64,000 nucleotides of DNA, taken from NCBI GenBank assembly GCA_015068645.1, contig SVKD01000002.1, forward strand, positions 55,733 to 119,732. Reading direction: 5' to 3'. The notes beneath the pieces are model-generated. The model saw nothing but the letters and a program-made list of their open reading frames with translations, made no database searches and was not told where the DNA came from. The position numbers and the translations under genes were made by a program. This stretch comes from Oscillospiraceae bacterium (GTDB lineage Bacteria; Bacillota; Clostridia; UMGS1840). Shown in pieces: positions 6,801 to 54,778 of the stretch; position 1 is the stretch's first letter, and each line of letters starts with the position of its first letter.

Positions 6801-6903
6801 GCTTGAAAAATGGCGCACAATCCGTAAATCTCACCGCTCGGCATACAGTGAGTATGCCTTCGGGATTCGATTTCCGAATTCTGCATCCATTTTTCTTCAC
6901 CTT
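6801..6903 (-). repeat. Family C repeat (MITE-like) copy, abutting EamA stop
   Basis: GCTTGAAAAATGGCGC terminus; GGCATAC/GTATGCC core hairpin; CACCTT other end. Confidence 0.85.
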
Positions 6904-6915
6904 GCTTTCTATTCT

Positions 6916-6953
6916 AAAAAAAAGACGAAATTCTAAAAGAATTTCGTCTTTTT
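6916..6953. terminator. Bidirectional intrinsic terminator (repeated family AAAAGACGAAATTCT...AGAATTTCGTCTTTT)
   Basis: Perfect stem with A and T tracts on both sides, between convergent EamA and purC. Confidence 0.85.
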
Positions 6954-6969
6954 CTTTTTTCACTATCTG

Positions 6970-7086
6970 AGGCGCAGGTAAAACGATGCAAAATGGAGAA
7001 ACCGAACCCGCAGGGGTTATCCGAAGGCGTACGTACTGTACGCCGAGCGATGAGGTTCATCCATTTGGCGCGTTTTAACAAGCCGC
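6970..7086 (+). repeat. Family C repeat copy, abutting purC stop
   Basis: AGGCGCAG...GGGTTATCCGAAGGCGTAC-GTACGCCGAG...TTTTAACAAGCCG then TTA (purC stop). Confidence 0.85.
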
Positions 7087-7770
7087 TTATCTATTGAGAA
7101 TTAATTTAGTCAATTCAATGGGAGAAACAATTTCGCCGTCCTTATAAACTCTCATGTTACCGGAAGCGATTTCGTCAATCAGGATAACTTCGTCATTGTT
7201 GTAACCGAATTCAAATTTGATATCCCATAAATCCAGACCGATGGTTTTTAAATCGTCTGCCACGATTTTGGTGATTTTTAAGGTCTGTTCTTTCATATCT
7301 TCAAACATTTTGGGGCTCATAACGCCTAATGCTGCCAGACCTTCGCCGGTTACTAACGGATCGCCTTTTTCGTCATTTTTGAAAGTACATTCCACATAGC
7401 CACCTTCTAAAGGAGTGCCATCTTCAATGTATTCGCCGTATCTTCTGATGAAGCTGCCGGTTGCAACCAATCTGCAGATTACTTCCAAACCGTGACCAAA
7501 TACTTTACCGGGAAGCACTTCCATGGTAGCATCTTCCACATTTGCGCTAACATAGTGGGTTTTAATGCCTGCTTTTTTTAATAAATCAAAATAATAAATA
7601 GAAGTTCTTAAATTTTCTCTGCCGATGCCTTCGATGGTTAAGCCAACAGAGTTTTCGCCGGGGTCAAACACACCGTCTTTGCCGGTGCAATCGTCTTTAA
7701 ATTTTAACAGTACATTGCCGTTATCTAAGCTGAACACGTCTTTGGTTTTGCCTTCGTAAATTTTTTTCAT
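7087..7770 (-). CDS. purC: Phosphoribosylaminoimidazole-succinocarboxamide synthase
   Basis: [39 protein letters not shown] synthetase motifs. Confidence 0.9.
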
Positions 7771-7972
7771 TGGTTTGTACCCCTTTTCTTTTTAGAAATC
7801 AGATTTTAAACTCTTTTTATTTTACCACGTTTTTTTGAAAAATTCAATATTTTCTTTTTATAAATTCCCATTTTTTTAAAATTTTATGAAATTTTCTATA
7901 GAATTAGTGTGTAAGGTTGGAAAAAATCGTGAAAATTGAATAAGAAACCCAAATAAAAAAGTGGGTTTTTGG

Positions 7973-8001
7973 TTGACATTTCTATTGTTTTAGTATAAAA
8001 T
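7973..8001 (+). promoter_or_regulatory. Sigma-A-type promoter of fucI
   Basis: TTGACA-17 bp-TAAAAT. Confidence 0.6.
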
Positions 8002-8062
8002 AACAATGATAGGACAAACTGATTTATATGAAAATTTATAACATAAACGGAGGAAAAATGCT

Positions 8063-9856: not shown

Positions 9857-10110
9857 GGGCTTGTAAAATTACCGAGATTGCAAAAGGCATAGGATTTTTT
9901 CCTGTGCCTTTTTCATAGCCTTCCCCTCGAGGGGAAGGGGGACCGCTTGCGGTGGATGAGGTGTTTTTCTAAAGTGAAAATTTGTTAGCACAAATTTTAA
10001 TTTGAAATGCCTTTTGCTATCAACCAACCTCGCCTCTCGGCGTACCTATGTACGCCTTCGGGTAACCCCTGCGGGCTCGGTTGATTGATTCTCGGAAATT
10101 TTCCTACACC
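9857..10110 (-). repeat. Family C long variant, abutting fucI stop, with family B element inserted at 9918-9963
   Basis: GGCTTGTAAAA terminus at 9858; core CTCGGCGTAC-GTACGCCTTCGGGTAACCC; GCCTTTTGCTATC segment shared with other long copies. Confidence 0.8.
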
Positions 10111-10149
10111 CCGTAAAAAGAAATAGGCTCAATAAAAGGCACCAAACAG

Positions 10150-10214
10150 ATTAACTTCACCACTCGCTGTACCGGTTCAGTTTCTCTGTTTTGCATCCTT
10201 TTCTCATCGCCTTA
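10150..10214 (-). repeat. Family C short deleted copy
   Basis: CTCGCTGTAC...TTTTGCATCCTTTTCTCATCGCCTT matches the outer end of family C. Confidence 0.6.
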
Positions 10215-10229
10215 TGGATGAGCAATAAT

Positions 10230-10270
10230 AAAAAGACGAAATTCTAATCAAAGAATTTCGTCTTTTTTTT
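10230..10270. terminator. Bidirectional terminator, same stem as 6916-6953
   Basis: AAAAGACGAAATTCT-aatcaa-AGAATTTCGTCTTTT. Confidence 0.85.
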
Positions 10271-10279
10271 CTATAATGT

Positions 10280-10480
10280 AAGGTGCGGAAAAAGGACTTA
10301 GAATTCATCAATCGAGCCCGCAGGGGTTACCCGAAGGCGTACATTGGTACGCCGAGAGGCTCGATTGGTGGATAGCAAAAGGCATTCTAATCAAATTGTT
10401 TGCAAAACAATTTCACCTTAGAAACAAAAAGGCACAGGAAAATCCTATGCCTTTTGCGGTCTATGTTCTTTTTCAAGCCG
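10280..10480 (+). repeat. Family C long variant, abutting malic enzyme stop
   Basis: AAGGTGCGG...GGGTTACCCGAAGGCGTACATTGGTACGCCGAG...TTCAAGCCG then TTA. Confidence 0.85.
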
Positions 10481-14731: not shown

Positions 14732-14753
14732 AATATACTTCCTTTCGGAATAA

Positions 14754-14877
14754 AATAGTGAATAGCGAAGAATGAAAAATGAAGAATTATGGTAGGTTGG
14801 CGAAGCCAACCATTATACGATGCAGGCTCTGCCTGCCACCGCAATTATTCATTATTCACTATTCATTCTTCATTGTT
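14754..14877. repeat. Family A element; supplies the last murD codons and stop
   Basis: Same arms and GCCTGCCACCGCAATT core; overlaps murD NNEE-stop. Confidence 0.8.
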
Positions 14878-16218
14878 TAAAGATTTTACAAAATCTTTAA
14901 ACAACCGTCCTCTTTCCATAAAGTTTTTGAAAAAGTCAAAACTTGCACAGGCAGGCGATAACATCACCACATCACCTGCTTCGGCTTGTGCATAGGCTTT
15001 ATGCACGGCATCTTCCAAGTTTTCTGCCACGCTGATGGGGAACTCGGGGTTCTCATTCAGCACAGCGGACTTGATCTTGTCTTTGGTGTGTCCCATTACC
15101 ACCAAATGTTTCACGCGGTCAACTACTTCCTTGGCATAGGAATCAAAGGGAATATTTTTGTCACTTCCCCCTGCAATCACAATAATTTTCTGGTCGAAAG
15201 AATGTAACCCTGCGATGGCACGGGAGGGGCTGGATGCGATGGAATCATTATAAAAACGAATGCCATTTAACTCACGCACAAATTCGATACGGTGTTCCAC
15301 ACCGCCAAATTCTTTTGCCACTTGTTTGACATAAGCTAAATCGCACAGAGGGCTAACCGCACAGGTTGCCGCCAGATAGTTATCCACATTGTGAATACCG
15401 GGGAGCAGAATATCTTCGGTTTTCATTACCTCTTTGCCGTTAAAATACACGGCGTCACCCTGTAAGTATGCCCCATTTTTTACAGGTTGTTTCAAGCTGA
15501 AAGAAAGAGAATTTTCCCCGATAAATTCTTTTGTGATGTCGTTTTCTAAATTAAACACGGTTATTTTGCTACCGTGACGGAAAAGGTTGGTCTTTGCCTC
15601 AACGTATTCAGCCATATCAGTGTGTTTGTCTAAATGATTGGGCGCTAAGTTGGTTACCACAGCGATATCGGCACTTTTTTGCATGGTCATAAGCTGGAAC
15701 GAAGATAATTCCACAATCACAAGATGATCTTCCTTGATCTGGGAAAGTTCGGGCAACAGAGGATTTCCGATGTTACCGCCTAAATGACAGGTGTAGCCTG
15801 CCTTTTTTAAGATTTCATAAATTAAGGTGGTGGTGGTGGTTTTGCCGTCACTACCCGTGATGCCGATAATCTTGGCAGGGCACAGGTCAAAGAACAGCTC
15901 CATTTCGGAAGTGAGTTCGGCTCCACGAGCAGTTGCGTTCACGATTTCCAAAGAAGTTGGCATAATACCGGGAGAACGGAAAATTACGTCTTCGGTGAGA
16001 TTGTTAAGATAGTCATCCCCCGAAATCATGGGTAAGTTATTTGCTTCGGCAAGTGCTACTGCTTCGGGTGACGGGTTTTTATCACGAAGGGTTATTTTGG
16101 TAACACCATGTTCCAACAGAAAGGTTACCAAAGGAAGATTACTTACCCCAACCCCTAACACTGTGACAGTTTTATTGGATAATTGTTCTGTTACATCTGC
16201 TAAATTTTTAAATCTCAT
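14863..16218 (-). CDS. murD: UDP-N-acetylmuramoyl-L-alanine--D-glutamate ligase
   Basis: GITGSDGKTTTT, GGNIG, ELSSFQL, NLAPNHLD, NDSIAS, LSPACASFD. Confidence 0.95.
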   Translation of the reverse strand: MRFKNLADVTEQLSNKTVTVLGVGVSNLPLVTFLLEHGVTKITLRDKNPSPEAVALAEANNLPMISGDDYLNNLTEDVIFRSPGIMPTSLEIVNATARGAELTSEMELFFDLCPAKIIGITGSDGKTTTTTLIYEILKKAGYTCHLGGNIGNPLLPELSQIKEDHLVIVELSSFQLMTMQKSADIAVVTNLAPNHLDKHTDMAEYVEAKTNLFRHGSKITVFNLENDITKEFIGENSLSFSLKQPVKNGAYLQGDAVYFNGKEVMKTEDILLPGIHNVDNYLAATCAVSPLCDLAYVKQVAKEFGGVEHRIEFVRELNGIRFYNDSIASSPSRAIAGLHSFDQKIIVIAGGSDKNIPFDSYAKEVVDRVKHLVVMGHTKDKIKSAVLNENPEFPISVAENLEDAVHKAYAQAEAGDVVMLSPACASFDFFKNFMERGRLFKDFVKSLNNEE

Positions 16219-16319
16219 CGTTTGCTACGCCCTTTCTCCCTTGGTTTTAACCAATATATTCTTATTGTATATTATAATACTTTTAGCATCTGTTTGCAAG
16301 GGGTTTGGGAAAAATTAAA

Positions 16320-16372
16320 GAAGAAATAATGAGGAAGAAAGAATAAATGCGGTGGCATCCTACGGATGCATT
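16320..16372. repeat. Partial family A element
   Basis: AATGAGGAAGAAAGAATAAATGCGGTGGCATCC-TAC-GGATGC. Confidence 0.55.
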
Positions 16373-16399
16373 GTAGGGGAGGGTTTCCACCCCCTCCCG
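16373..16399 (+). repeat. GTAG-type REP
   Basis: GTAG followed by GGGAGGG...CCCTCCC hairpin. Confidence 0.7.
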
Positions 16400-16422: not shown

Positions 16423-16520
16423 GTAGGGGACGGTGCCCACACCGTCCCGTTTTATCACAATATATTGCATAATGTTGTGCAATCTTCAAAAAACGGACAG
16501 ATGTGGGCATCTGTCCCTAC
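16423..16520. repeat. Inverted GTAG-REP doublet (REPIN-like)
   Basis: GTAGGGGACGGTGCCCACACCGTCCCG ... CGGACAGATGTGGGCATCTGTCCCTAC. Confidence 0.8.
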
Positions 16521-16583
16521 AAAACAAAACGATCACAATATCTACATTGGTAGGGGACGATTCCAAATGGAGGAGACGAAAAA

Positions 16584-16754
16584 GGCTTCCCCTTGAGGGG
16601 AGGCTCCGCCGCAGGCGGTGGTGAGGTGGAATTGAGGGGAACAGCCTTTAAAATGTTCCGAAAACACAACATTCGGTTCGTCGGAAAACGCCGAACCCTA
16701 CAACACCTCATCCGAGTTTGCTTCGCAAACCCACCTTCCCCTCAAGGGGAAGGC
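16584..16754. repeat. Inverted family B doublet enclosing a GTAG-REP (16676-16701)
   Basis: CTTCCCCTTGAGGGGAGG...GTGAGGTG and CACCTCATCC...CCTTCCCCTCAAGGGGAAGG. Confidence 0.75.
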
Positions 16755-16814
16755 TTTGTTGAAATGTGATACATAAAACCATAGTGCAGAAAAATGGATG
16801 TACCCATAAACTCA

Positions 16815-17059
16815 GGTGAAGAGAAGATGGCTCAGAACGGACAAACTGAGCCAAAGCTGTAGTACTGCGTACAGCATAACTGTACAGCGAGCGGTGAAAT
16901 TTACGGATTGGGCACAATTTTGTGCAGTCAACCTAAGCGCAGGGAAAATTGATGCAGAATTTGGAAATCGAAAGAAAACCATTGGTTTTCTCTTCCCGAA
17001 GCTGTACTGTGTGTACAGCGAGCGGTGAGATTCACGGATTGGGCACAATTTTCACAAGC
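16815..17059 (+). repeat. Two tandem family C copies
   Basis: Cores GCTGTA...GTACAGCGAGCGGTGA at about 16858 and 17000; TTTTCACAAGC terminus next to a terminator. Confidence 0.75.
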
Positions 17060-17126: not shown

Positions 17127-17288
17127 TTAGATCTGAGAACCTTCGTCTAACAGAGCCATGTTGTAAGTGGTGGTGATTTTACCATCAGTAGTGGTTACAA
17201 CAGCGGTTTCTAACGGATTGGTGTAAGATACAGCTTCATTAGCCTGTAAGGAAATAATTTCAACAGAAGGGCAAACATAATTTTTCAT
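17127..17288 (-). CDS. 53-aa peptide with YxxP (RRE-recognition-like) leader
   Basis: MKNYVCPSVEIISLQANEAVS-YTNPLETAVVTTTDGKITTTYNMALLDEGSQI; strong AAGGAGG RBS; last gene before a terminator. Confidence 0.75.
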   Translation of the reverse strand: MKNYVCPSVEIISLQANEAVSYTNPLETAVVTTTDGKITTTYNMALLDEGSQI

Positions 17289-17310
17289 CTCTATATATCC
17301 TCCTTTAAAA

Positions 17311-18165
17311 TTATTCAACTACTACGGTGAAGGTAGTGTCAGCGATGATAGTATCGTTAGCGAAGAAGTTTAATACTTTAGTACCAGTATGAACGTTTTC
17401 TAAAACGATTTCGAAGGTACCGTCCCAGTTACCGAAGGTGAAGGTGGTAACGCCGTCGTTGCCATCGGAAACGGTATCGCCGTCCATAGCGCCATAGTAT
17501 TTCTGAGCTCTTGCGCCTTCTACGGTAGATTCTTTGGTGAATTCTACACCGTAGTTGGTAACGGTAGCGTCAACTTTACCTGCACAGGTAATGGTGGTGC
17601 CAGCTGCAGTTGCAGAGAAGGCAGAACCACCATCAACTTCGAGAGTAAAGTAAGCGGGGTTATTTACAGAAGTAAACTTAGCACCAGCAGTCTGACCAGC
17701 TACAGTATAACCAGCAGAGGTGGGGATTTTAGATGCGGTTAAAGCTTTGTCACCATAAGCAAAATCAGCTTCGGTTAATTTGGTAGCTGCATCAACTTTG
17801 TTAACAGTGTAAGAAACTGCTAATAAAGTACCTTTTTCAGTAACATAATTACCTAAATCAGAGAAAGAACCGATCATTTTAATCTGACCAGGTTTATTCT
17901 GGGTGTCATTCAGAACACAAGTAGCAAATTTTTCGCCTAAAACTGCAGAACCTTCAACATAAGTTGCAGCTGTAGTTAACAGAATGGAGTTGAAACCAGC
18001 ACAAGCGTTAACATTGGTAACATAAACTTCAACAGTTGCAGTAGCGCCGTTATCTGTAATCACGGTATGCATACCACCGTCTTTATGAGGATCAGCAGCG
18101 AAAGATACCAGAGATAAAGAAGCCAGCATAGCCACTACTAATAAGAGTGAAAATACTTTTTTCAT
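17311..18165 (-). CDS. Secreted protein with a cohesin-like beta-sandwich domain
   Basis: Signal peptide ending SFA; VEVYVTNV..AGF...GQIKM...GTLLAVSYTV pattern resembles cohesin folds. Confidence 0.6.
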   Translation of the reverse strand: MKKVFSLLLVVAMLASLSLVSFAADPHKDGGMHTVITDNGATATVEVYVTNVNACAGFNSILLTTAATYVEGSAVLGEKFATCVLNDTQNKPGQIKMIGSFSDLGNYVTEKGTLLAVSYTVNKVDAATKLTEADFAYGDKALTASKIPTSAGYTVAGQTAGAKFTSVNNPAYFTLEVDGGSAFSATAAGTTITCAGKVDATVTNYGVEFTKESTVEGARAQKYYGAMDGDTVSDGNDGVTTFTFGNWDGTFEIVLENVHTGTKVLNFFANDTIIADTTFTVVVE

Positions 18166-29164: not shown

Positions 29165-29169
29165 AAAAC

Positions 29170-32887: not shown

Positions 32888-32890
32888 ATT

Positions 32891-33409: not shown

Positions 33410-33449
33410 AAAAAGACGAAATTCTTTGAAAAAGAACTTCGTCTTTTTT
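33410..33449. terminator. Third copy of the AAAAGACGAAATTCT terminator
   Basis: AAAAGACGAAATTCT-ttgaaaa-AGAACTTCGTCTTTT. Confidence 0.75.
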
Positions 33450-33463
33450 ATTGATCCTAACGT

Positions 33464-33809
33464 AAGGCGATGAGAAATGGATGCAGAATTCGGAAATCGA
33501 ATCAAGGCAACACCTTGACGAGCCCGAAGCCGTAGTACTGCGTACAGCATAACGGTACGCCGAGCGGTGAGATTCACGGATTATGCGCCATTTATCAAGC
33601 CGTTCCCAAAGGCGAAGAAAAAGGGCATAGAATTTGCAAACTGAACCGAAGGGTTACCCGAAGGCGTACATTGGTACGCCGAGCGGTGAAGTTTGCAGAT
33701 AGCAAAAGGCATTCTAATCAAAATTTGTGCCAACAAATTTTCACCTTAAACAAAAAGGCATAGGAAATAAATCCTATGCCTTTTGCGGTCTATGTTCTTT
33801 TTCAAGCCG
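33464..33809 (+). repeat. Tandem family C copies (short 33464-33604, long 33609-33809), abutting carB stop
   Basis: Both end in TCAAGCCGT; the second is followed directly by the carB stop. Confidence 0.85.
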
Positions 33810-36800
33810 TTAGAAAGAAACTTTACCTTCAAAGGATTTCACCGCCGGTCCAGTCATTTGAATAGTTGAATCTGTGTAACGGATTTTTAAATCTCCGCCG
33901 GGGAGCTTCACGGTGATATCGGTATCTTTTTCACAGTGACCGTTTAAGATTGCTGCAACAGCTGCTGCGCAAGCACCGGTACCGCAAGCTAAGGTTTCGC
34001 CGATACCACGTTCCCAAACACGCATTTTCAGGGTGTTTTTATCAATCACAGTAACAAATTCCACGTTTACCCGATCGGGGAACATGGGATGATATTCCAG
34101 TTCGGGACCAATTTTTTCTAAGTTTACGGTGTCTAAGTTTTCAGTGAATACTACTGCGTGAGGATTGCCAACTGCTAAGCAGGTTACGTTAAAGGTTTCG
34201 TCTGCAACACTGATGGGTTCGTTAATCACCGGTTCTTTGTCGGAAACCACGGGAACCAGTTCGGGTTTGGTTTCTGCCTTGCCCATATCTACCTGTGCTG
34301 CAACTACTTCGCCCTCCATGGTGTAAACCTTCAGCTTTTTCACACCGCTTAAGGTTTCAATTTCCATATCTTCACGGGGAACAATGCCCTTGTCATACAG
34401 GTATTTACCCACGCAACGGATAGCGTTTCCGCCCATTCTGCCCTCGGTGCCATCTGCATTGAAGATTCTCATTTTCGCATCAGCAATTTTGGAAGCTTCA
34501 ATGACCACCGCACCGTCTGCACCGATGCCAAAGTGACGGTCGGAAAGACGGATTGCCAGTGCTTCGGGGTTATCAATCTGCTTGTCTAAGCAATCAAAAT
34601 AGATATAATCGTTGCCCAAGCTCTGCATTTTGGTAAATTCCACAGTCACTTTATCTTCGCGCATATTGTTGATATCCACGATTTCGATGCTTTGTTCAGA
34701 GTATTTACCTTTCATAGAGTTGATAACAGCGTTTGCAGTGTCAATAGAGGTGAAGCAGGGAACGCTTCTTTCTACCGCTTTTCTTCTGATTTTTACGCTG
34801 TCACGTTCGGGCAGTCTACCTTTTGCGGAAGTGGAAACTACAAAGTTTACTTTACCGCTTTCAATCAAGGTTAGAGTGTTGTTTTCTGCATTTTCGTGAA
34901 TTTTATCCACGGGGATAACAGGAAGACCTGCATCGGAGAGCACTTTTGCGGTGCCGTGAGTGGAATATAAGGTGAATCCTAAATCGTGGAATCCTTTTGC
35001 CACGCCGTAAATTTCCGCTTTGTCGGAATTTCTTACGGAAATGAACACACCGCCTTTTTTATGGAGCTGATAGCCGGCTCCGATTAAGCCTTTATACAGG
35101 GCTTCTTCCAAGTTTGCACCGATACCTAAAACTTCCCCGGTGGATTTCATTTCAGGCCCTAAGTGAATGTCTACCCCTAAGAGTTTGGCAAAGGAGAACA
35201 CAGGCACTTTGACTGCCACATAGGGAGAATTTCTGTAAAGACCGGTGCCGTAACCCATATCTTTTAATTTTTCGCCCAACATTGCACGGGTTGCCAAGTC
35301 AATCATAGGCACCTTGGTTACCTTGCTGATGTAGGGAACAGTTCTGGAAGATCTGGGATTTACTTCGATGACATATAATTCGTTATCATACACCAGATAC
35401 TGGATATTTACCAGACCTTTGGTGTTTAAGGCAACGGCTAATTTCTTGGTAGCATCAATGATTTTTTGAATCATGGGAACATCTAAGTTAAACGCAGGAT
35501 ATACGGCGATAGAGTCACCGGAGTGTACCCCTGCACGTTCAATATGTTCCATAATACCGGGGATTAAAATGTCTTCCCCGTCGGAAATGGCGTCAACTTC
35601 AATTTCAGTACCCATTAAATATTTGTCAATCAAAATGGGGTTTTCGTCCAGACCGTGCAAAATAATCTTCATATATTCCTTGGTGTCGTTATCGTTCCAA
35701 GCAATAATCATATTCTGACCGCCCAATACATAAGACGGACGAATCAGCACGGGATAACCGATACGGTTTGCAGTTTCCAATGCTTCTTCTTCGGTTAACA
35801 CGGTAAAGCCCTGAGGACGTTTGATGTTGAGTCTTTCAAGTAAATCGTCAAAACGTTCTCTGTCTTCCGCCATATCAATGCTGTCTGCACTGGTACCCAA
35901 GATTCTTACCCCGTTTTCCTGGAGGAAGTTGGTCAGTTTAATGGCAGTACCGCCACCAAATGCAACCACCACGCCGTAGGGTTTTTCGGTGTGAATCACG
36001 TTCATCACGTCTTCGGGGTTTAAGGGTTCAAAATACAGACGGTTTGCAGTGTCAAAGTCGGTGGAAACGGTTTCGGGGTTATTGTTGACGATAACCACTT
36101 CGTAACCTGCTTCCTGGAGCGCCCATACACAGTGTACGGATGCATAGTCAAACTCAATCCCCTGACCGATACGGATCGGACCGGAACCGAATACGATAAT
36201 GGTCTTTTTGTCGGTGGGATTGTTATCAATAAATTCTCTTGCTTCGTTGGCTTCTTCATAGGAAGAATAGAAGTAGGGGGTCTGTGCATCAAATTCCCCT
36301 GCACAGGTGTCTACCATCTTATAGGAAGCATAGATTTTTTCAGGAACTTTCTGATTGGATAAGTTTTCAATCACCTTGTCCAAAAAGCCCATTTTCTTCG
36401 CTTCTAAGTGAAGTTCTTTGGTTAAGGGTTCTTCTTTCAAGCGACATTCCATCTTGTAAAGATTATAGAGCTTGGATAAGAACCAACGGTCAATCTTGGT
36501 GATATCATAGATGGTGTCGATAGAAACGCCACGGGTGATAGCTTCATACACCACGAAAATTCTTTCGTCGTTGCACTGATAAAGTTTTTCGTTAATCACC
36601 TCATCGGATAAGCCAACCAAGTCTTTATGGCGCATAGAATCCTTGGAAATTTCTGCTCCGCGGACTGCTTTCATAATGGCTTCTTCAAAGGTGGCACCGA
36701 TTGCCATAACTTCCCCGGTAGCCTTCATCTGAGTGCCTAAATCACGTTTTGCATACACAAATTTATCGAAGGGGAATTTGGGGAATTTTACTACCACATA

Positions 36801-38910: not shown

Positions 38911-39229
38911 ATGAGCGAAAACTTCCTTTCTGATTGTGTGTATCGTAGCCAAAAATCAACGATTTTAAGCGGTTTTTTCTAAAAATGGGTAAAATTTTTT
39001 CCGAAATCACAAGGGATTTCGGTTTTTTTAGAAAAGCAGATGCTATTCTTTTCGAAATTCAGGAGAAATTTCTTTCTATTTATTGTATCATTTCTGACGA
39101 TAATTGTCAATGATTTTTTCTTGGTTTTTTTCGTATATTTCTACAATTTTTCGGGATTGGAAAATCAAAAAATTTCCTTGAAAAACCGTAAGGATTCTAA
39201 AGATAAAATCCTTACGGTTTTTTGCTTAA

Positions 39230-39350
39230 AATAATGAAGAGTGAAGATTGAATAATGAATAATTATGGTGGCACCCTTCGGGTGCATTATAATGCAGGCA
39301 ACGCCTGCCACCGCAATTTTTCGTTATTCATTTTTCATTATTCGTTCTTC
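39230..39350. repeat. Family A element
   Basis: Heptamer arms around GGTGGCACCC-TTC-GGGTGC and GCAGGCAACGCCTGCCACCGCAAT. Confidence 0.8.
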
Positions 39351-39353
39351 AAC

Positions 39354-39496
39354 TGTGCGCCATTTGTCGAGCCATTCCCCGATAGCGATGGAAAAATTGT
39401 TCAGAATGTCGAATCAAACCCGAAGGGGAGTCCCCGAAGCCGTACCGTGTGTACGGCGAGTGGTTTGCATTCGGCATTATGGGCAATTTTAACGAG
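39354..39496 (+). repeat. Degenerate family C copy (plus terminus remnant), abutting pyrH stop
   Basis: CCCCGAAGCCGTAC-GTACGGCGAG core; TTTTAACGAG then CTA (pyrH stop). Confidence 0.7.
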
Positions 39497-40201
39497 CTAT
39501 TTCACCAGAGTACCGATAGTTTCGCCGGTGATGGCCTTAATAATATTTTCCGGCTGCTGCAATCCAAACACGTGAATGGGAATGTTATTATCCATACACA
39601 GAGAAGTTGCGGTGGAATCCATAACACCTAAACCACGGTTTAACACATCGATGTAGGAAATGTTGTCGAATTTTTTTGCATCGGGATTTTTTGCGGGGTC
39701 GGAATCGTAAACAGCGTCCACTTTTTTCGCGAGCAGGATTACGTCTGCACTGATTTCAGCAGCACGAAGAGCTGCAGCAGTGTCGGTGGAGAAGTAGGGG
39801 TTACCGGTTCCGCAACCAAAAATTACAACTCTGCCTTTGTCTAAATGACGTTCTGCTCTGCCACGGATATAGGGTTCTGCAATCTGACGCATATCAATGG
39901 CAGTCTGCACTCTTGCCTGAACGCCTAATGCTTCCAGGGAATCTGCAATTGCCAGAGAGTTGATGGCAGTTGCCAACATACCCATATGGTCTGCACGGGT
40001 TCTGTCCATATTTTCGCCGGTTCTTCCTCTCCAGAAGTTACCGCCGCCTACTACGATAGCAACCTGAACGCCCATCGATACACATTTTTTTACCTGTTTT
40101 CCGATATCTGAAATCACATTAAAGTCTAAACCAAAGCCGTTAGCCCCTGCCAACGCTTCGCCACTAATTTTTAACAATACTCTTTTATAAATCGGTTGCA
40201 T
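39497..40201 (-). CDS. pyrH: UMP kinase
   Basis: [49 protein letters not shown]. Confidence 0.96.
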
Positions 40202-42719: not shown

Positions 42720-42766
42720 AATGAATAAAGAATAATGAATCATCTATTCTGCAATCTAAGGCGCAG

Positions 42767-43007
42767 AAAAAGGACATAGAATTTGCAAACCAAACCGAAG
42801 GGTTACCCGAAGGCGTACATCGGTACGCCGAGAGGTGAGGTTTGCAGATAGCAAAAGGCATTTCAAATTAAAATTTGTGACAACAAATTTTCACCTTGAA
42901 AAAACACCTCATCCACCGCAAGCGGTCCCCCTTCTCCTCGAGGAGAAGGCCATATCTAAGATAAACCCCTATGCCTTTTGTGGTCTATGTTCTTTTCCAA
43001 GCCGCCC
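42767..43007 (+). repeat. Family C long variant with family B element at 42905-42950, abutting spoIIE stop
   Basis: AAGGCGCAG...GGGTTACCCGAAGGCGTACATCGGTACGCCGAG...TTCCAAGCCG. Confidence 0.85.
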
Positions 43008-47784: not shown

Positions 47785-47961
47785 TGGAATAAAATCCATG
47801 CCTTTTGCGTTCTCCATATTTCTTTTCCAAATCTCTATCCAAGGCGAAGAAAAATGGATGCAGAATGAAGAAACCGAACACCGAAGGTGGTTACCCGAAG
47901 CCGTACCGCGTGTACGGCGAGCGGTGAGGTTCATTCATTATGCGCCATTTATCAAGCCGTC
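47785..47961 (+). repeat. Family C tail remnant plus full copy (47841-47961), abutting the epimerase stop
   Basis: AAGGCGAAG...TACCCGAAGCCGTAC-GTACGGCGAG...TTTATCAAGCCGT. Confidence 0.85.
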
Positions 47962-48951: not shown

Positions 48952-48988
48952 AATGAATACTCCTTTATTAAATTTATAGTTTGTTTAA

Positions 48989-49036
48989 GGCTTCCCCTCG
49001 AGGGGAAGGCTCATATGTTGTTTGTTTTATCAGGCT
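48989..49036. repeat. Family B hairpin plus family C terminus remnant at trpS stop
   Basis: GGCTTCCCCTCGAGGGGAAGGC and TTTTATCAGGCT then TTA. Confidence 0.65.
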
Positions 49037-50044
49037 TTAGCGTTCGATAAAGCCGATTTTCTTATACACTTTTCTTAAAATCTTGCGGGATGCAAGACAA
49101 GCTTTTTCGGCACCCTGTTTATAAATCTGTTCCAGGTACGCTTTGTCGCCCTGCAATTGCAGGTATTTTTCTCTTACGGGACGTAATTCTTCCACCACAC
49201 ATTCTGCCACATCGCTTTTGAACACACCATAGTTTTTGCCCTGGTATTCGGCTTCGATTTCCTCAAAGGATTTGCCTGTGATGGCACCCATAATGCTCAT
49301 TAAGTTTTCGATACCTTCTTTGCCTTCCCCACGGCAGATTCTCATATCGCTGTCGGTCACCGCAGACTTGATTTTTTTGGTGATGGAATCCGCATCATCG
49401 GTGACGGTGATATAAGCTTTGGGATTTTCGTCGGATTTGGACATTTTCTTGGTGGGTTCCTGCAAACTCATAATTTTTGCGCCTGTTTTGGAGATGTAGC
49501 CTTCGGGAACGGTGAAGGTGTCACCATAATGATTGTTAAAACGGATGGCGATATCACGTGCTAATTCCAGATGCTGCATCTGGTCAATCCCAACGGGAAC
49601 CAGGTCGGTACCGTATAACAGAATGTCTGCCGCCATTAAAACGGGATAAGTGAACAGACCTGCACCGATGGATTCGTTCTGTTTGTTTTTGGTTTTATCT
49701 TTAAACTGAGTCATACGGGATAATTCACCCATATAGGAATTACACATCAATACCCAAGCCAGCTCTGCGTGAGCAGGGTTATGGGACTGCATAAACATAA
49801 TGTTTTTCTCAGGATCCAACCCGCAGGCGATATACTGGGTTAAAAAGTCCAGACAACGCTTTCTTAAATCCGCAGGATTCTGACGGACGGTGATGGCGTG
49901 CATATCCACCACGCAGTATGCACAGTCATATTCATCCTGGAGCTTTACCCAGTTTTTCAATGCACCGATATAGTTGCCGATGGTGATATGTCCTGAGGGC
50001 TGAATGCCCGAAAAGATTCGTTTTTTTCTTTCGATTTTTTCCAT
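49037..50044 (-). CDS. trpS: Tryptophan--tRNA ligase
   Basis: SGIQPSG.ITIGNY, YPVLMAADIL, VPVGIDQ, KKMSKS. Confidence 0.97.
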   Translation of the reverse strand: MEKIERKKRIFSGIQPSGHITIGNYIGALKNWVKLQDEYDCAYCVVDMHAITVRQNPADLRKRCLDFLTQYIACGLDPEKNIMFMQSHNPAHAELAWVLMCNSYMGELSRMTQFKDKTKNKQNESIGAGLFTYPVLMAADILLYGTDLVPVGIDQMQHLELARDIAIRFNNHYGDTFTVPEGYISKTGAKIMSLQEPTKKMSKSDENPKAYITVTDDADSITKKIKSAVTDSDMRICRGEGKEGIENLMSIMGAITGKSFEEIEAEYQGKNYGVFKSDVAECVVEELRPVREKYLQLQGDKAYLEQIYKQGAEKACLASRKILRKVYKKIGFIER

Positions 50045-50104
50045 TTTCTTTGCTCCTCGTCTCTGTTAGGATAATCAAAATTATAATTTGGTGATGCCAC
50101 CTCT

Positions 50105-50175
50105 AAGGCGCAGAAAAAGGGCACAAAACACCTCATCCACCGCAAGCGGTCCCCCTTCTCCTCAAAGGAGAAGGC
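50105..50175. repeat. Family C outer-end remnant joined to a family B element
   Basis: AAGGCGCAGAAAAAGG followed by CACCTCATCCACCGCAAGCGGTCCCCCTTCTCC. Confidence 0.7.
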
Positions 50176-50216
50176 TTATATGCCACCCTATTTCCAATCC
50201 ACCAACCTACTGCAAA

Positions 50217-51410
50217 TTACAGGTTTTCTTTCAGAACATCCGCTAAGATTCCAATGCCTTCCACAATTTTTTCGTCGGTCATGGTGGAATAATTTAAGCG
50301 GAAGCAGTTACAGGGTTTTGCCATGTCGGTCATAAAGTTACTTCCCGGCACAAACGCCACATTCTTTTCCACGCCTTTTTTCACGATGCCTGCCGCGTCC
50401 ATACCTTCGGGTAAGGTACACCAGATAAAGAGTCCACCTTCGGGACGGGTATATTTCACTTCTTTGGGGAAGTGTTTATCCATTTCGGATAACATCAGTT
50501 CGCACTGATGTCCGTATAATTCTCTTGCTTTGCCAATATGAGCATCAATGTCGCAGGTTTTTAACCATTCGGATGCAATCACCTGAGTTAAGAGGTTGGT
50601 ATGTACGTCATTAACCTGTTTTGCAACTACCATTTTTTCCATAATTTCGGGAATACCGTGGGTGAAACCAAGTCTCAGACCGGGTGCCAAAATTTTGGAG
50701 AAGGAACCAAAATACATCACGGCGTTTTCGGTATCCATCGATTTTAAGGTGGGCACATTTTCCCCTTTAAAACGAAGCTCGCCGTAGGGGTTATCTTCAA
50801 AAATCACCACATTATACTGATATGCCAAAGAAAGCAGTTTCTTTCTTTTTTCCAAACTCATGGTGATGCCTGTGGGATTCTGGAAGGTGGGAATCACATA
50901 AATGATGCGAACTCTGTCATCTGATTTCAAAATCTCTTCCAGTTTATCCAGATTCATACCGTCTTCTTCCACGGGAACCCCTTTTAACACGGCACCGTAT
51001 GTACGAAAAGAGTTCAACGCACCGATAAAGCTGGGTTCTTCCACAATGATGGTGTCACCGGGATTTAAAATGCTTTTTACCGCTAAATCAAGTCCCTGCT
51101 GACCGCCGGTGGTGATGATGGTGTTGTTGCCTTCTTGGTAAATACCCTGTTTTTTCAGTCTCGCTTCCACCTGCTCAATTAAGGGGGTATATCCTTCGGT
51201 GATGCCGTACTGCAAACACAGAGAAGGCATTTCGGTTAACACTTTTTGAGCAATTTCCTTGATTTCATCCACAGGGAATGTCAAGGGAGAGGGATTTCCT
51301 CCCGCAAAAGAGATAATGCCGGGTTTTGCCATAGTTTTAAACATTTCACGAATGGCAGAGCCCTGCATGGTTTTCATATTATCGGAAATATGATACTTCA
51401 TATTTTTCAT
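50217..51410 (-). CDS. PLP-dependent class I/II aminotransferase (LysN/MocR-type, no HTH)
   Basis: ISFAGGNP, LQYG.TEGY, IPTFQNPTG, FEDNPYGEL, GSFSKILAPGLRLG. Confidence 0.9.
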   Translation of the reverse strand: MKNMKYHISDNMKTMQGSAIREMFKTMAKPGIISFAGGNPSPLTFPVDEIKEIAQKVLTEMPSLCLQYGITEGYTPLIEQVEARLKKQGIYQEGNNTIITTGGQQGLDLAVKSILNPGDTIIVEEPSFIGALNSFRTYGAVLKGVPVEEDGMNLDKLEEILKSDDRVRIIYVIPTFQNPTGITMSLEKRKKLLSLAYQYNVVIFEDNPYGELRFKGENVPTLKSMDTENAVMYFGSFSKILAPGLRLGFTHGIPEIMEKMVVAKQVNDVHTNLLTQVIASEWLKTCDIDAHIGKARELYGHQCELMLSEMDKHFPKEVKYTRPEGGLFIWCTLPEGMDAAGIVKKGVEKNVAFVPGSNFMTDMAKPCNCFRLNYSTMTDEKIVEGIGILADVLKENL

Positions 51411-51431
51411 CTTCCTTTCTGTTACCAAGTT

Positions 51432-52106: not shown

Positions 52107-52140
52107 ATCTTTTGGTTTCCTCCTTTCTGAAAATATCATT

Positions 52141-52213
52141 GTAGGGACAGATGCCCACATCTGTCCGCTGTTTTGAAATGGTAACACGGGACGATGAAGG
52201 CATCGTCCCCTAC
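52141..52213. repeat. Inverted GTAG-REP doublet
   Basis: GTAGGGACAGATGCCCACATCTGTCCG ... CGGGACGATGAAGGCATCGTCCCCTAC. Confidence 0.8.
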
Positions 52214-52224
52214 AGTTTCATTTT

Positions 52225-52830
52225 TCATTTTGTTGGAAAATTGATAAAATTTTCAAGTAGCTTCAGTCCTGTTTTTCCGCTTTTTTCGGGGTGAAACTGG
52301 GTCAAAAACACGTTTTCTCTCTGATATGCACAGTCAAAGGGAATACCGTATTCCGAAGTGGCAATCACTTCCTCACGGTTTTTTGCCTCTAAATAGTAGC
52401 TATGCACAAAATAAAAATAATCGTCAGGCAAGTCGCAAAATAAGGGACTTTCTTTGTATTCAATTCGGTTCCAGCCAATCTGAGGCACTTTTTTGCAGAT
52501 GTCCACGGGAAATTTTTTGATTTCACCGGGAAAAATGCCAAGACCGGGTAAATTACCTTCTTCGGATGTTTCAAAACACATCTGTAACCCCACGCAGATG
52601 CCCAAAAAAGGTGTTTTTTTCTCAATCACTTCGTACACGGTTTCAATGAGGCCTGATTTTCTGATGCTTCCCATAGCATCATCAAAATGACCCACACCGG
52701 GCAGAATCACGTGGTCTGCAGAACGGATCATATTTTTGTCAGAGGTAATAGATACCTCATCGGTAAACTGTTTTAAGGCGTTGGAAACCCCGAACAGATT
52801 CCCTGCGCCGTAGTCAATAATCGCTATCAT
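52225..52830 (-). CDS. hisH: Imidazole glycerol phosphate synthase glutaminase subunit
   Basis: IIDYGAGN, LPGVG, GICVGLQ, YFVHSY, QFHPEKSG (triad intact). Confidence 0.95.
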   Translation of the reverse strand: MIAIIDYGAGNLFGVSNALKQFTDEVSITSDKNMIRSADHVILPGVGHFDDAMGSIRKSGLIETVYEVIEKKTPFLGICVGLQMCFETSEEGNLPGLGIFPGEIKKFPVDICKKVPQIGWNRIEYKESPLFCDLPDDYFYFVHSYYLEAKNREEVIATSEYGIPFDCAYQRENVFLTQFHPEKSGKTGLKLLENFINFPTK

Positions 52831-53465
52831 TATTCAATAACCGCCTTCACTTTTTCAATCATGGGCAGAATCTGCTTTTTCATTTTCATACTTACTTTAT
52901 TGACAATCAGACGTGCAGACAGCTGACATACTTCTTCCAACACGCCAAGACCGTTTTCTTCTAAGGTTTTGCCCGATTCCACAATATCCACAATCACATC
53001 GGATAAGCCCACAATGGGAGCTAATTCAATAGAACCGTTTAATTTGATGATGTCGGGAGACTGTTTTTTCACATCTTTAAAATAAGCTCTTGCAATATTG
53101 GGATACTTGGTAGCAACCTTTAGGGATGACACACGGCTGTTTAATTTTTCTCTTGCCGATTCGGGTCCGCAGACACACATTCTGCACTTTCCAAAATTTA
53201 AATTTAATACTTCGTACAGACTTCTGCCTTCTTCCAAAATAGTGTCTTTGCCCACCACGCCGATATCGGCAGCGCCGTATTCCACATAACAGGGAACATC
53301 ACTTGCTTTTACCAAAATATATTTAACTTTACCGATTTCGTCAGTAAAAATCAACTTTCTGCCCTTGTCTTCCAGACAGGAAATATCGTAACCTGCTTTG
53401 CCGAAAATTTCGGCAGCATAGTCACCTAATCTGCCTTTTGCCAATGCAACGGTAATGTATTTCAA
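52830..53465 (-). CDS. hisG: ATP phosphoribosyltransferase, short form
   Basis: VALAKGRL, YVEYGAADIGVVGKD, VATKYP, GSIELAPIVGLSDVIVDIVESGKTL; TTG start. Confidence 0.95.
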   Translation of the reverse strand: MKYITVALAKGRLGDYAAEIFGKAGYDISCLEDKGRKLIFTDEIGKVKYILVKASDVPCYVEYGAADIGVVGKDTILEEGRSLYEVLNLNFGKCRMCVCGPESAREKLNSRVSSLKVATKYPNIARAYFKDVKKQSPDIIKLNGSIELAPIVGLSDVIVDIVESGKTLEENGLGVLEEVCQLSARLIVNKVSMKMKKQILPMIEKVKAVIE

Positions 53466-53480
53466 TTCGCTCTACCTCCC

Positions 53481-54566
53481 TTATCCGTTTACAATCACAG
53501 ATTTGCCTTGTTTTCTAAGTTCTTTGGCCTGTTCAATCAGTTCCTTTTTGTCATCACCTGATAACAATTCATCTGCTTTGGGAGCTTCGTGGGAAATCGC
53601 GTGGCTCATACCGTCGGTCAAACGGTTGATATAAATAGCAGAACCGGTTGCAGGAATTTCTTTGCCAAATCGGGAAATCAATTTGTCATAACGACCACCG
53701 CCTGCCACGGGGAATCCCACACCCTGATGGAAGATTTTAAAAATCATACCGGTGTAGTAATCCATATTTTTGTTCATACCCAAATCAAAAGTAATATAAT
53801 TTTCGTAACCGTAGTAAGAAAGATAAGTATCAATTTCCAACAGTTCTTCCAATGCTTTTTTAGACTGTTCGGGCAATTTTTTATTGAGCATTTCGGTGAT
53901 AACTTCTTTTCCGCCGAATAAGGTGGGCAGTTTTAAAATGATATCTTTAATGGACTCATCAAGAGTAACGGTTTGGAGCACTTCTTCCATAGACAGGATA
54001 TCTTTTTTTACCATCAAATCATTGATTTCATCCTGCAATTCTTCGGATAAGTGACTTTCGGACAGAAGACCTCTTACAAAGTTTACGTTCCCTAATTCCA
54101 CCATAAAGTCGGTAGCACCTGCATCCAATAATGCATTTATCGTTAAAGCGATAACTTCCGCATCATAGAAAGTGCCTTTTTCACCCAGAAGCTCAATACC
54201 TGCCTGGGTGAATTCATTCTGTCTGCCACCTTTGGTGGGGTCGGAAAAACGGTATACGTTTCCCAAATAAGATGCTCTCACAGGCAACTGATCAAATAAT
54301 TTGGTTGCAGCTACTCTGGCAATAGGCATAGTCATATCAGGACGCAAGGATACCACTGCACCGTTTCTATCTACCAATCGGTACAGTCCTTCTGCATCAG
54401 AATTACCAAAAAATACGCTGTCGTACTCCATTAAGGGAGTTTCCAACGGAAAATAACCGTAGCTTTTAAAACATTTCATAATGTTTTCTTCTATCTGATG
54501 CTTAAATTCACACTCCGAAAATAAAATATCGTTGGTACCTTCTAAGGTTAATGCCGTTTTTTTCAT
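53481..54566 (-). CDS. hisZ: ATP phosphoribosyltransferase regulatory subunit
   Basis: HisRS-like LRPDMTMPIAR, QAGIEL, YYTGMIF, GGGRYD; upstream of short hisG. Confidence 0.9.
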   Translation of the reverse strand: MKKTALTLEGTNDILFSECEFKHQIEENIMKCFKSYGYFPLETPLMEYDSVFFGNSDAEGLYRLVDRNGAVVSLRPDMTMPIARVAATKLFDQLPVRASYLGNVYRFSDPTKGGRQNEFTQAGIELLGEKGTFYDAEVIALTINALLDAGATDFMVELGNVNFVRGLLSESHLSEELQDEINDLMVKKDILSMEEVLQTVTLDESIKDIILKLPTLFGGKEVITEMLNKKLPEQSKKALEELLEIDTYLSYYGYENYITFDLGMNKNMDYYTGMIFKIFHQGVGFPVAGGGRYDKLISRFGKEIPATGSAIYINRLTDGMSHAISHEAPKADELLSGDDKKELIEQAKELRKQGKSVIVNG

Positions 54567-54629
54567 AGTGCAGGGGTTCTCCTTTTTGCTTTTTTTAATG
54601 AGAGGTGATTTTCAGGTTCCTATTTCAAA

Positions 54630-54778
54630 ACGTGCGCCATTTTACAAGCTCTCTATAATCTGAGGCGAAGAGAAAAGGATGCAAAATGGAACAACCGAAC
54701 CGAAGGGTTATCCGAAGGCGTACTGTTGTGTACGCCGAGTGATGAGGTTACTTCATTTTGCGCCTTTTATCAAGCCAT
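54630..54778 (+). repeat. Family C terminus remnant plus full copy (54663-54778), abutting dnaN stop
   Basis: AGGCGAAG...GGGTTATCCGAAGGCGTAC-GTACGCCGAG...TTTTATCAAGCCAT then TTA. Confidence 0.85.

Follow-up and report, generated by a model that had tools for sequence, protein, structure and literature searches.

A Y-shaped, structure-constrained repeat at stop codons in uncultured gut Clostridia

The window analysed here, a 64,000-nucleotide (nt) stretch of an Oscillospiraceae genome (assembly GCA_015068645.1, contig SVKD01000002.1, labelled C2; C2:55733-119732), poses the question of why a repeated, palindromic sequence should begin within a few bases of the stop codons of many genes, and why it should point in the direction of the gene that it follows. 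The original prediction for this stretch had described such a repeat beside eleven stops and had offered two readings of it: a miniature inverted-repeat transposable element (MITE) whose transposase targets the TAA or TAG ends of genes, or selection for a structure in the 3' untranslated region (UTR). The sequence in question, a Y-shaped hairpin that will be referred to as the “Y element”, represents a family of non-coding, structure-constrained intergenic repeats of 115-250 nt which is uncatalogued. It is of the same kind as the repetitive extragenic palindromes and bacterial interspersed mosaic elements (REP/BIME), BOX, and the enterobacterial repetitive intergenic consensus (ERIC), and its address is unusually strict, namely the space that separates the stop codon of a gene from the terminator, occupied in the gene's direction.

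The source genome, labelled G000, is assembled in 20 contigs totalling 1.76 Mb. Genes were called from open reading frames (ORFs) and codon scores without external annotation, which gave 1,466 genes and 87% coding sequence; the identities of the genes at the element's junctions were checked with Pfam. A covariance model counted 65 copies of the Y element in G000, and a hidden Markov model 69. The relatives of G000 are uncultured ruminant-gut Clostridia which carry the labels Clostridia bacterium, Acutalibacteraceae, Congzhengia and Oscillospiraceae. The window was compared with the syntenic DNA of five congeners (the congeners being 10 species of the genus), and the wider sample comprised 251 genomes of the class Clostridia.

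Placement of the Y element at stop codons

The orientation of the Y element is that of the upstream gene in 63 of the 64 copies that have an upstream gene, compared with a null expectation of 0.46 (p ~1e-19, or ~1e-14 when the 46 arrays are counted once each; these p values and the next were calculated by hand). The left end falls between -8 and +7 nt from a co-oriented stop in 26 of the 43 copies with a complete 5' end, where the null is 0.024 (p ~1e-30); each of the other 17 is either the second member of a tandem array or the core of an element of the long form (“type 2”, as distinct from the short “type 1”) whose left arm abuts the stop. Since the genes downstream of the copies are convergent in 34 cases and co-directional in 33, the orientation follows the upstream gene and not the neighbourhood. 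Nor can the direction of replication explain it, because the copies in the window that follow plus-strand genes (EamA, fucI and Dabb) are opposed to those that follow minus-strand genes. Mapping with the covariance model against a null thus extends to the whole genome the enrichment at stops and the orientation bias that the original prediction had claimed for the window.

The stops beside the 26 copies are TAA in 16 cases, TAG in eight and TGA in two. TAG is enriched (8/26 compared with 13% in the genome, p = 0.015), and in seven of the eight TAG cases its G lies at, or at most 1 nt from, the modelled first base of the element. The left end of the element carries stop codons of its own (TAA-C-GGCTTG, G-GCT-TGA-TAA and GGC-TTG-TAA), which are sometimes the stop of the gene: the element's left end contains the two TGA stops as well as two of those that are TAA, and it is G-GCT-TGA that supplies the TGA. 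Besides the TAA and TAG ends named in the original prediction, TGA is thus not excluded, and occurs where the element itself provides it. Beyond the window, at C2:155300-155480, a conserved coding region that the gene caller missed ends in ACG-GCT-TGA, so that in G000 and in the sister species G004 alike its stop is the TGA within the GGCTTGA of the element.

The spacer between the stop and the element is variable, at 0-7 nt, and the outer stem has its first pair 0-15 nt past the stop, with a mode of 7-12. The flank before the left end reads AAC in about a third of the copies and is otherwise variable, with no conserved tetranucleotide. In gaps that hold several repeat families the Y element is always the first after the stop, while a REP-like family of the same genome, characterized by GTAG plus a hairpin, is not stop-adjacent. 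The 3' UTRs of G000 are very short, with terminators that begin 0-15 nt past many stops; a canonical terminator follows about half of the stop-adjacent arrays, and the arrays that lack one lie mostly between co-directional genes.

Within the window, the 330 nt on the 3' side of each of the eleven stops named in the original prediction were read individually, and all eleven proved to have a co-oriented element start beside them, eight of these being clear and three degenerate. At the eight clear junctions GGCTTG(A/T/G)(A/T)AAA begins 0-4 nt past the stop. The exact sequence GGCTTGWAAA occurs four times in the window, compared with 0.7 expected, and a count of four was reached by none of 100 shuffles. 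The window holds 14 of the 65 copies found by the covariance model in G000. It had also been claimed that inverted copies fill the convergent gaps 6801-7086 and 9857-10480, and this is what was found, the copies in each gap flanking a common two-way terminator. The copies, remnants and shared terminators in the window are as follows (bit scores are those of the covariance model).

6800-6902, plus strand: type 1 copy after EamA (C2:62532-62634), 111.7 bits; TA is followed directly by GGCTTG, the stop being TAG and its G the first base of the element.
6919-6953, no strand assigned: two-way intrinsic terminator common to EamA and purC, AAAAAGACGAAATTC...GAATTTCGTCTTTTT, from the terminator scan; direct-repeat family D12.
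6970-7084, minus strand: type 1 copy after purC, 118.9 bits; junction TAA-GC-GGCTTG.
9858-10111, plus strand: type 2 copy after fucI, Y core 9999-10111, 58.1 bits; junction TAA-G-GGCTTG; its layout is a 5' arm GGCTTGTAAAA, a terminator-like hairpin, the palindrome CCTTCCCC, the hairpin AAATTTGT and the Y core.
10126-10212, plus strand: partial tandem copy behind the fucI type 2 copy, 62.8 bits.
10230-10267, no strand assigned: two-way terminator common to fucI and the malic enzyme gene; the same module as at 6919-6953, family D12.
10281-10479, minus strand: type 2 copy after the malic enzyme gene, core 59.5 bits; junction TAA-C-GGCTTG; terminator-like hairpin inside at 10427-10455.
16936-17059 and 16814-16929, minus strand: two tandem copies, 98.5 and 44.1 bits, 70 nt behind the stop of a small ORF (17127-17318) and past that ORF's terminator.
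29169-29418, plus strand: type 2 copy after Dabb, core 29304-29418, 59.2 bits; degenerate 5' end 4 nt past the stop, TAG-AAAA-CAGCTTGTAAAAG.
33610-33808, minus strand: type 2 copy directly after carB, core 63.5 bits; junction TAA-C-GGCTTG.
33465-33601, minus strand: older type 1 copy after carB, 209 nt from the stop, 101.5 bits.
39383-39497, minus strand: type 1 variant after pyrH (AA_kinase), 78.1 bits; degenerate junction TAG-CTCGTTAAAA.
39353-39373, minus strand: 5' fragment of a second copy, GGCTCGACAAATGGCGCACAG, family D14; truncated where a copy of a different palindromic repeat family has inserted.
42759-43003, minus strand: type 2 copy after spoIIE, core 42759-42869, 62.7 bits; junction TAG-GGGC-GGCTTGG.
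47842-47958, minus strand: type 1 copy after a gene with Pfam domain DUF4432 (called an epimerase in the original prediction), with the highest score, 127.9 bits; junction TAA-GAC-GGCTTG.
49024-49036, minus strand: 5'-end remnant after trpS, AGCCTGATAAAAC, from the junction sequence TAA-A-GCCTGATAAAAC.
54663-54776, minus strand: type 1 copy after dnaN, 110.6 bits; junction TAA-AT-GGCTTG.
54631-54651, minus strand: 5' fragment of a second copy behind the dnaN copy, GAGCTTGTAAAATGGCGCACG, from the junction sequence.

The two-way terminator itself behaves as a repeated module: it is near-identical at three unrelated loci (6915-6956, 10229-10270 and 33410-33451) and recurs in sister species. The carB ORF (1,347 amino acids; window 33810-34650) carries a C-terminal diaminopimelate-epimerase domain (PF01678, residues 1226-1339), a fusion that is also present in sister species.

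Fold, conservation and turnover

All full-length copies share the Y fold, in which GGC pairs with GCC, GAAAAAnnn pairs with nnnTTTTTC, and a long imperfect stem follows. The outer stem is an A-rich/T-rich frame, GGCTTGAAAAA...TTTTTCnnCGCC, which encloses a GCGTAC hairpin and a second hairpin. The left arm of this constant frame is purine-rich and contains an A-tract (GGCTTG-AAAAA-nGCGCA...), while the right arm is pyrimidine-rich and contains a T-tract (...TGCATCnn-TTTTTC-nnCGCC-TTA). The inner hairpin, CGGCGTAC-loop-GTACGCC, is almost invariant, and the second inner hairpin is exchangeable, occurring in several discrete versions or missing altogether. Type 1 is about 115 nt long. Type 2, at about 200-250 nt, has the left end and the core of type 1 with extra hairpins inserted into the left arm, one of which is a canonical terminator, AAAAGGCATAGG...CCTATGCCTTTTT.

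The consensus fold is supported by extensive covariation. Among 33 copies in G000, compensatory changes were found on both sides of 16 of the 25 consensus pairs; among 80 copies from other genomes, both sides changed in 18 of the 25, and 90.3% of the cells were paired compared with 23-46% in structures slid by 1-3 columns. The values observed were reached by none of 500 shuffles. The best-scoring copy, at the DUF4432 site, has a fold z-score of -5.45. The ends of the element are complementary (GGC...GCC and GAAAAA...TTTTTC), as the terminal inverted repeats of a MITE would be, but since the whole element is an imperfect palindrome with covarying pairs, this complementarity fits a structural constraint and not transposase binding. 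A match to an already described family, which would have spoken against the original prediction, was not found in Rfam: there were no matches at gathering scores over the whole window, and matches at chance level only when one type 1 copy and the type 2 pair were searched at E values up to 10.

The copies are kept by selection on pairing. Orthologous copies of a retained subtype differ by 0.046 substitutions per site in the stems compared with 0.097 in the loops, and the third codon positions of the adjacent genes differ by about 0.3-0.38, so that stems change half as fast as loops and the element as a whole changes 3-7 times more slowly than the neighbouring third codon positions. The second of the two readings originally proposed, selection on a structure, gains support from these rates and from the covariation. 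Within G000, by contrast with what is expected of the highly similar copies of a MITE, the 44 full-length copies have a median identity of 64% and a maximum of 91.5%, with a nearest-paralog median of 82%. The copies are old, and there have been no recent bursts.

The occupancy of particular stops differs between species. The PurC protein is 96-100% identical across species, but the purC stop is followed by a type 1 copy in G000, by a type 2 copy in G003 and by a deleted type 2 copy in G008; a solitary GGYTYRAAAAA motif stands there in G002 and G009, which in G002 runs directly into the A-tract of the terminator, a remnant may be present in G010, and there is nothing in G001, G006 and G007. At the dnaN stop the element is found in six species, with differing subtypes and junctions, and the site is empty in G006 and G008; in G002 and G009 the last two codons and the stop read CGC-TTG-TAA, matching the element's left end. 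At carB, the type 1 copy that adjoins the stop in G004 has a counterpart in G000 (93% identical) which is displaced by 209 nt by a stop-abutting type 2 copy, the latter being absent from both G004 and G002, where type 1 abuts the stop. The copy that abuts the stop of the DUF4432 gene in G000 and G004 sits behind a type 2 copy in G002. In both of the arrays that can be ordered, carB in G000 and DUF4432 in G002, the added copy is stop-proximal to the older one. Fragments, tandem arrays and nested copies also occur. No strain-level variation was seen at the purC-EamA locus, where nine of nine metagenome contigs have the same 286-nt gap.

The comparison of filled and empty sites in relatives, by which the targeting claim was to be judged, accordingly revealed turnover at fixed stops, but no target duplication: the two filled/empty pairs with well-aligned flanks contain no duplicated bases. 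In the first, which compares G004 with G000 and G002 at an aminotransferase gene, TTTGC-AG-TAGG stands against TTTGC-element-TAGG, and this recent-looking insertion lies 5 nt past the stop although about 110 nt of spacer were free. In the second, between G004 and G000, GAAC-ATAGAA within a type 2 left arm stands against GAAC-element-ATAGAA, so that a type 1 copy is nested in a type 2 copy. A TA target duplication was considered for one insertion, of which the right junction fits and the left does not. Two type 2 copies of G000 (family D17) are identical through TC-TAA-C-GGCTTG, which means that TAA-C may travel with the element.

All 10 congeners carry the element, with 33-61 copies each, and other genera of the family and order have 0-33 copies. 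Over the class its distribution is patchy, as copies are found in 35 of the 251 sampled Clostridia, belonging to at least 11 families. In the distant genomes the copies are co-oriented with the upstream gene in 60 cases and not in 17 (judged with crude ORFs), and those with a complete left end begin 1-8 nt past the stop, although a different sequence stands in place of GGCTTG. Copies on two viral contigs of IMG/VR were confirmed by the covariance model; on one viral contig (L191), type-2-like copies at 2640-2860 and 7340-7550 lie between minus-strand ORFs and are apparently anti-oriented. Weak tandem matches to the model (34-45 bits) occur in Bifidobacterium leontopitheci (L086). The annotated plasmids and phages that were searched contain no match to the element, and an exact 44-mer of the DUF4432-site copy had no match in JGI metagenome contigs. 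Pattern matches in Fibrobacter, Rokubacteria and similar genomes were not confirmed by the covariance model, about 80 chance matches being expected by our own estimate.

The distribution within G000 is itself uneven. Contigs C6, C7, C9, C13, C14, C17, C19 and C20 (752 kb, or 43% of the assembly, with a GC content of 0.37-0.41) have no copies, and all 65 lie in the other 1.0 Mb (GC 0.40-0.43), which by hand calculation has a chance of ~1e-11 for 46 arrays. This could be due to a regional bias or to a mixed bin; the reported contamination is 0.25%.

Possible modes of action and of spread

The reading to which we incline, while holding it somewhat short of probable, is that the Y element is a mobile, REP/BOX-like 3'-end module with a terminator-like architecture which does its work within the transcript of the gene in front of it. 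The messenger RNA (mRNA) of that gene would carry the element as its tail, and the element's oversized module of A-tract, hairpin and U-tract would serve as an orientation-dependent terminator or attenuator and as a barrier to 3' exonucleases. The base of the stem, mostly 7-12 nt past the stop, would place the element at the edge of the terminating ribosome, the downstream edge of which lies at about this distance. Its spread would need either a mover acting in trans or recombination between copies. The resemblance to an intrinsic terminator follows from the T-richer tail behind the hairpin, which favours the gene strand in 27 copies compared with two in G000 (p = 9e-6) and in 57 compared with seven in other genomes (p = 9e-10). 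A generic terminator scan flagged one hairpin with a T-run inside the EamA copy; the stem of the element is long and branched.

Several results weigh against this reading. The U-rich tail comprises only 4-5 U and itself belongs to the outer stem. In 116 of 124 copies the fold of the opposite strand is better than that of the gene strand, by a mean of 6 kcal/mol as RNA; with DNA parameters it is likewise more stable, by about 3.5 kcal/mol. The opposite-strand fold (z-score -5.02) gains about two pairs over that of the gene strand and is richer in G-U pairs, and the unpaired bases of the gene strand are mostly pyrimidines. The counts of G-U and A-C combinations, 57 and 63 in consensus pairs and 6 and 10 in orthologous substitutions, favour neither strand. 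In type 2 the canonical terminator lies within the element, 25-35 nt past the stop, and because it precedes the Y core, that core may rarely be transcribed; yet the type 2 core covaries as strongly despite the upstream terminator. No mover was found among the classes examined, RAYT-like/Y1_Tnp proteins (RAYT, REP-associated tyrosine transposase) and reverse transcriptases (RVT_1), DDE transposases and tyrosine or serine recombinases not having been searched. G000 has two RAYT-like Y1 ORFs, at C1:23849-24325 and C12:93360-93863, which match the NCBIfam model REP_Tyr_transpos (NF047646) with 61 and 78 bits where the cut-off is 80. As movers they were rejected, since copies of the element do not consistently flank them and their occurrence does not match that of the element: RAYT-like proteins are missing in five of the 10 congeners, which have 33-50 copies, and present in two genomes which have none. 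Retro-mobility was rejected as well, RVT_1 being absent from G000 and from eight of the 10 congeners.

A further difficulty is presented by orthologous copies that are 94-100% identical although the flanking genes have diverged by 12-20%. Over all species pairs the identity of the element is bimodal, copies being either near-identical or unrelated. At the DUF4432 site a single nucleotide in 116 separates the copies of G000 and G004, and the same holds for those of G003 and G006, whereas identity over the final 600-900 nt of the gene is 80-88% and the sequence beyond the terminator cannot be aligned. Simple vertical descent can explain such copies only with extreme constraint; they may reflect either that or recent exchange between species. 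A similar case is the gap between the aminotransferase gene and trpS (50044-50217), where a repeat-laden region of about 170 nt is 100% identical in G000 and G002 and both flanking genes are about 10% diverged. Together with the better fold of the opposite strand and the inner terminator of type 2, the near-identical copies keep readings at the DNA level alive.

If the element were instead a functional, cis-acting RNA of the 3' UTR, inherited vertically and not mobile today, then the terminating ribosome would open or abut the outer stem and so couple termination of translation to mRNA decay or to termination of transcription. Such coupling was reportedly described by Liang, Rudd and Deutscher in 2015 for Escherichia coli REPs within ~15 nt of the stop. 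This would account for the lack of near-identical paralogs, for the slow change of orthologous copies, for the strong covariation, and for a stop-to-stem spacing that clusters at 7-12 nt even where lineages have different spacer sequences. We nevertheless consider it unlikely in view of the turnover at the purC stop, the tandem arrays, nested copies and fragments, the patchy distribution over the class, the better fold of the opposite strand, and the terminator that precedes the core of the long form. The opposite strand could also be the functional RNA of a small antisense gene, transcribed from the far side toward the 3' end of the host gene. Some copies do have TATAAT-like hexamers on that strand just outside the right end, in addition to its more stable fold, but in the right flank conservation ends after GCC-TTA so that the family has no promoter in common, many copies have a terminator or a convergent gene directly behind them, and the T-rich tail is on the gene strand, all of which makes an antisense gene highly improbable.

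The remaining alternatives concern the route by which the element came to lie at stops. An enzyme that inserts it in fixed orientation at or in TAA or TAG, or their TA, with the element's first base regenerating the stop, would explain the excess of TAG and the coincidence of its G with the first base, the two type 2 copies that are identical through the stop, the extra copy on the stop side of the older one in two arrays, and the insertion next to the aminotransferase stop. Set against this are the absence of target duplication, a spacer that varies without any conserved flanking tetranucleotide beyond the AAC of about a third of the copies, one clean insertion inside the left arm of another copy and not at a stop, the age of the copies, and the failure of any transposase in the classes examined to track the element. 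A target-specific transposable element is in our judgement quite unlikely. Of the first of the original readings, gene-end targeting is supported only as a rule of placement, given the stop-proximal added copies, the insertion 5 nt past a stop and the turnover of subtypes, while a MITE mobilized by a TA-targeting transposase fails on the points that define such an element. Targeting might also be mimicked passively, if copies inserted at random survived only between stop and terminator, and if the short 3' UTRs made these survivors appear stop-adjacent. The very short 3' UTRs are in keeping with such a safe haven, as are the several unrelated repeat families stacked between the pyrH stop and its conserved native terminator. 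It is, however, already disfavoured and very improbable, because it would not produce the near-uniform orientation when half of the copies face a convergent gene, the different behaviour of the REP-like family, the constant first position of the Y element in mixed gaps, or an insertion so close to a stop with so much of the spacer free.

At the DNA level, the element might be a single-stranded DNA recombination site on the strand opposite the gene, comparable to the attC sites of integrons or to the REP hairpins handled by HUH enzymes, through which 3'-end modules are swapped between loci or species. The better fold of the opposite strand, also with DNA parameters, argues for this, as do the sharp boundaries of the near-identical interspecies copies (a mismatch 7 nt upstream of the stop, no alignment past the terminator), the model-confirmed copies on viral contigs, and the attC-like combination of a length of 60-140 nt, conservation of structure over sequence, a start at the stop, and co-orientation. 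The core sites of attC (RYYYAAC...GTTRRRY) were not seen by eye, however, the hosts are housekeeping genes in conserved synteny and not cassettes, RAYT-like proteins do not track the element, and the islands of identity could reflect constraint; we know of no integron integrase in this group, although no integrase search was made. Such a site is improbable. An extension of the same idea, in which the outer A/T frame serves as a docking address and whole 3'-end modules (Y core and terminator hairpins) are swapped between loci or co-resident species by single-stranded DNA recombination on the opposite strand, is a similarly long shot. It would explain together the better opposite-strand fold, the near-identical copies that lie in diverged flanks and are bounded at the stop, and the differences of subtype at one stop. 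If true, the Y element would be a Clostridial, cassette-free analogue of attC, which remodels how genes end and not which genes are present.

Relation to known repeats, and significance

Like the REP, BIME and REPIN (REP doublet forming hairpins) sequences of Enterobacteria and Pseudomonas, the Y element is extragenic, multi-copy, palindromic, structure-constrained, and enriched at the 3' ends of genes and in convergent gaps, and G000 shares with REP systems the presence of RAYT-like genes. Transcribed REPs protect the upstream mRNA from 3' exonucleases, and REPs near the stop affect translation. A REP, however, is a 20-40-nt palindrome with a 5' GTAG, whereas the Y element is a 115-nt Y-shaped hairpin without GTAG whose orientation is strictly locked to the gene, and which the RAYT-like genes neither flank nor track. 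The better candidate for a REP in G000 is the family of GTAG plus the GC-rich hairpin GTAGGGGACGGTGCCCACACCGTCCC, which is found in the window at 32857-32892, 52183-52218 and 16490-16525, for which a fuzzy pattern counts about 80 sites, some of them spurious, and which coexists with the two RAYT-like ORFs. The two form a possible REP-RAYT system in a metagenome-assembled genome of the Clostridia.

With BOX of Streptococcus pneumoniae (boxA-boxB-boxC) the Y element shares a modular length of 100-250 nt with a variable number of modules, a Firmicute host, stable folds and a lack of coding capacity. BOX is without a known transposase, and none was found for the Y element among the Y1/RAYT-like and RVT_1 classes. 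To our knowledge the two are unrelated in sequence, and BOX is not known to abut stops or to be locked in orientation. ERIC (also intergenic repeat unit, IRU), of 127 nt in Enterobacteria, is likewise an imperfect palindrome of about 120 nt, with old, diverged copies and with internal insertions that give longer forms; it sits in transcribed intergenic regions, as is predicted for the Y element. The original prediction had already likened the architecture to ERIC, while noting that the window has no cognate transposase. ERIC occurs in both orientations and at variable distances from genes. It differs from the Y element in belonging to a different phylum and in lacking a Y junction with an invariant inner hairpin. 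The Correia elements of Neisseria and the MITEs that act as terminators are comparable as small non-autonomous repeats which supply terminators and RNA-processing sites at gene ends, but Correia elements are bounded by terminal inverted repeats, duplicate a TA target and have highly similar copies, whereas the Y element has no duplication and its copies have diverged.

The attC sites (57-141 nt) start at or in the stop of the preceding ORF, are co-oriented with it, and conserve structure over sequence, all as in the Y element; their active folded strand is opposite the ORF, and the branched tips of long attC sites can also be likened to it. When the aligned ends are compared by eye with the attC cores R'' (RYYYAAC) and R' (GTTRRRY), the sole resemblance is to R'', in the AAC that precedes some left ends, and the right end is CGCC-TTA; attC cassettes are promoterless, while the hosts of the Y element are core genes in conserved order. 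With intrinsic terminators it has in common the succession of A-tract, hairpin and U-tract, the U-richer tail on the gene strand, the position after the stop, and face-to-face pairs between convergent genes, but it is a branched hairpin of 100 nt with a U-tract of 4-5, and a separate canonical terminator stands behind about half of the copies. The palindrome-associated transposable elements (PATE) derived from IS200/IS605 insert on the 3' side of a fixed tetra- or pentanucleotide without duplication; the Y element also lacks a duplication, and has the AAC of a third of the copies in an otherwise variable flank.

Two further repeats share the gaps of the window. One is a second, nearly perfect palindromic family, AATGAATAATGAA...GCGGTGGCAGGC-loop-GCCTGCCACCGC...TTCATTATTCATT, whose ends also touch stop codons and which takes the sites of the Y element in sister species at carB (G003) and at spoIIE (G002, G003 and G009); a MurD-like ORF (14863-16218) reads three codons into one of its copies and then meets TGA. 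The other is a short palindromic module, CCTTCCCCTCGAGGGGAAGG, often followed by GGGACCGCTTGCGGTGGATGAGGTG, which stands alone or is embedded in type 2 copies. Their positions are:

1709-1829, 14751-14878, 16311-16387, 29534-29604, 39227-39349 and 58236-58396: second palindromic family.
9919-9941, 16585-16607, 16734-16756, 29216-29238, 42930-42952 and 48990-49012: CCTTCCCCTCGAGGGGAAGG module.

REP, BOX and ERIC have been known for decades, and their function and spread are disputed, one reason being that their placement is loose. The Y element offers near-perfect orientation, a precision of a few bases and abundant covariation, and many uncultured gut Clostridia have it at dozens of their housekeeping genes. 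Its precise placement therefore makes it testable whether such a repeat works as folded DNA or as RNA, in the 3' part of the message and in concert with the terminating ribosome. For the annotation of these genomes it means that about 3% of the intergenic space and many real gene ends are defined by an element which no database names, and which in several genes supplies the stop codon itself.

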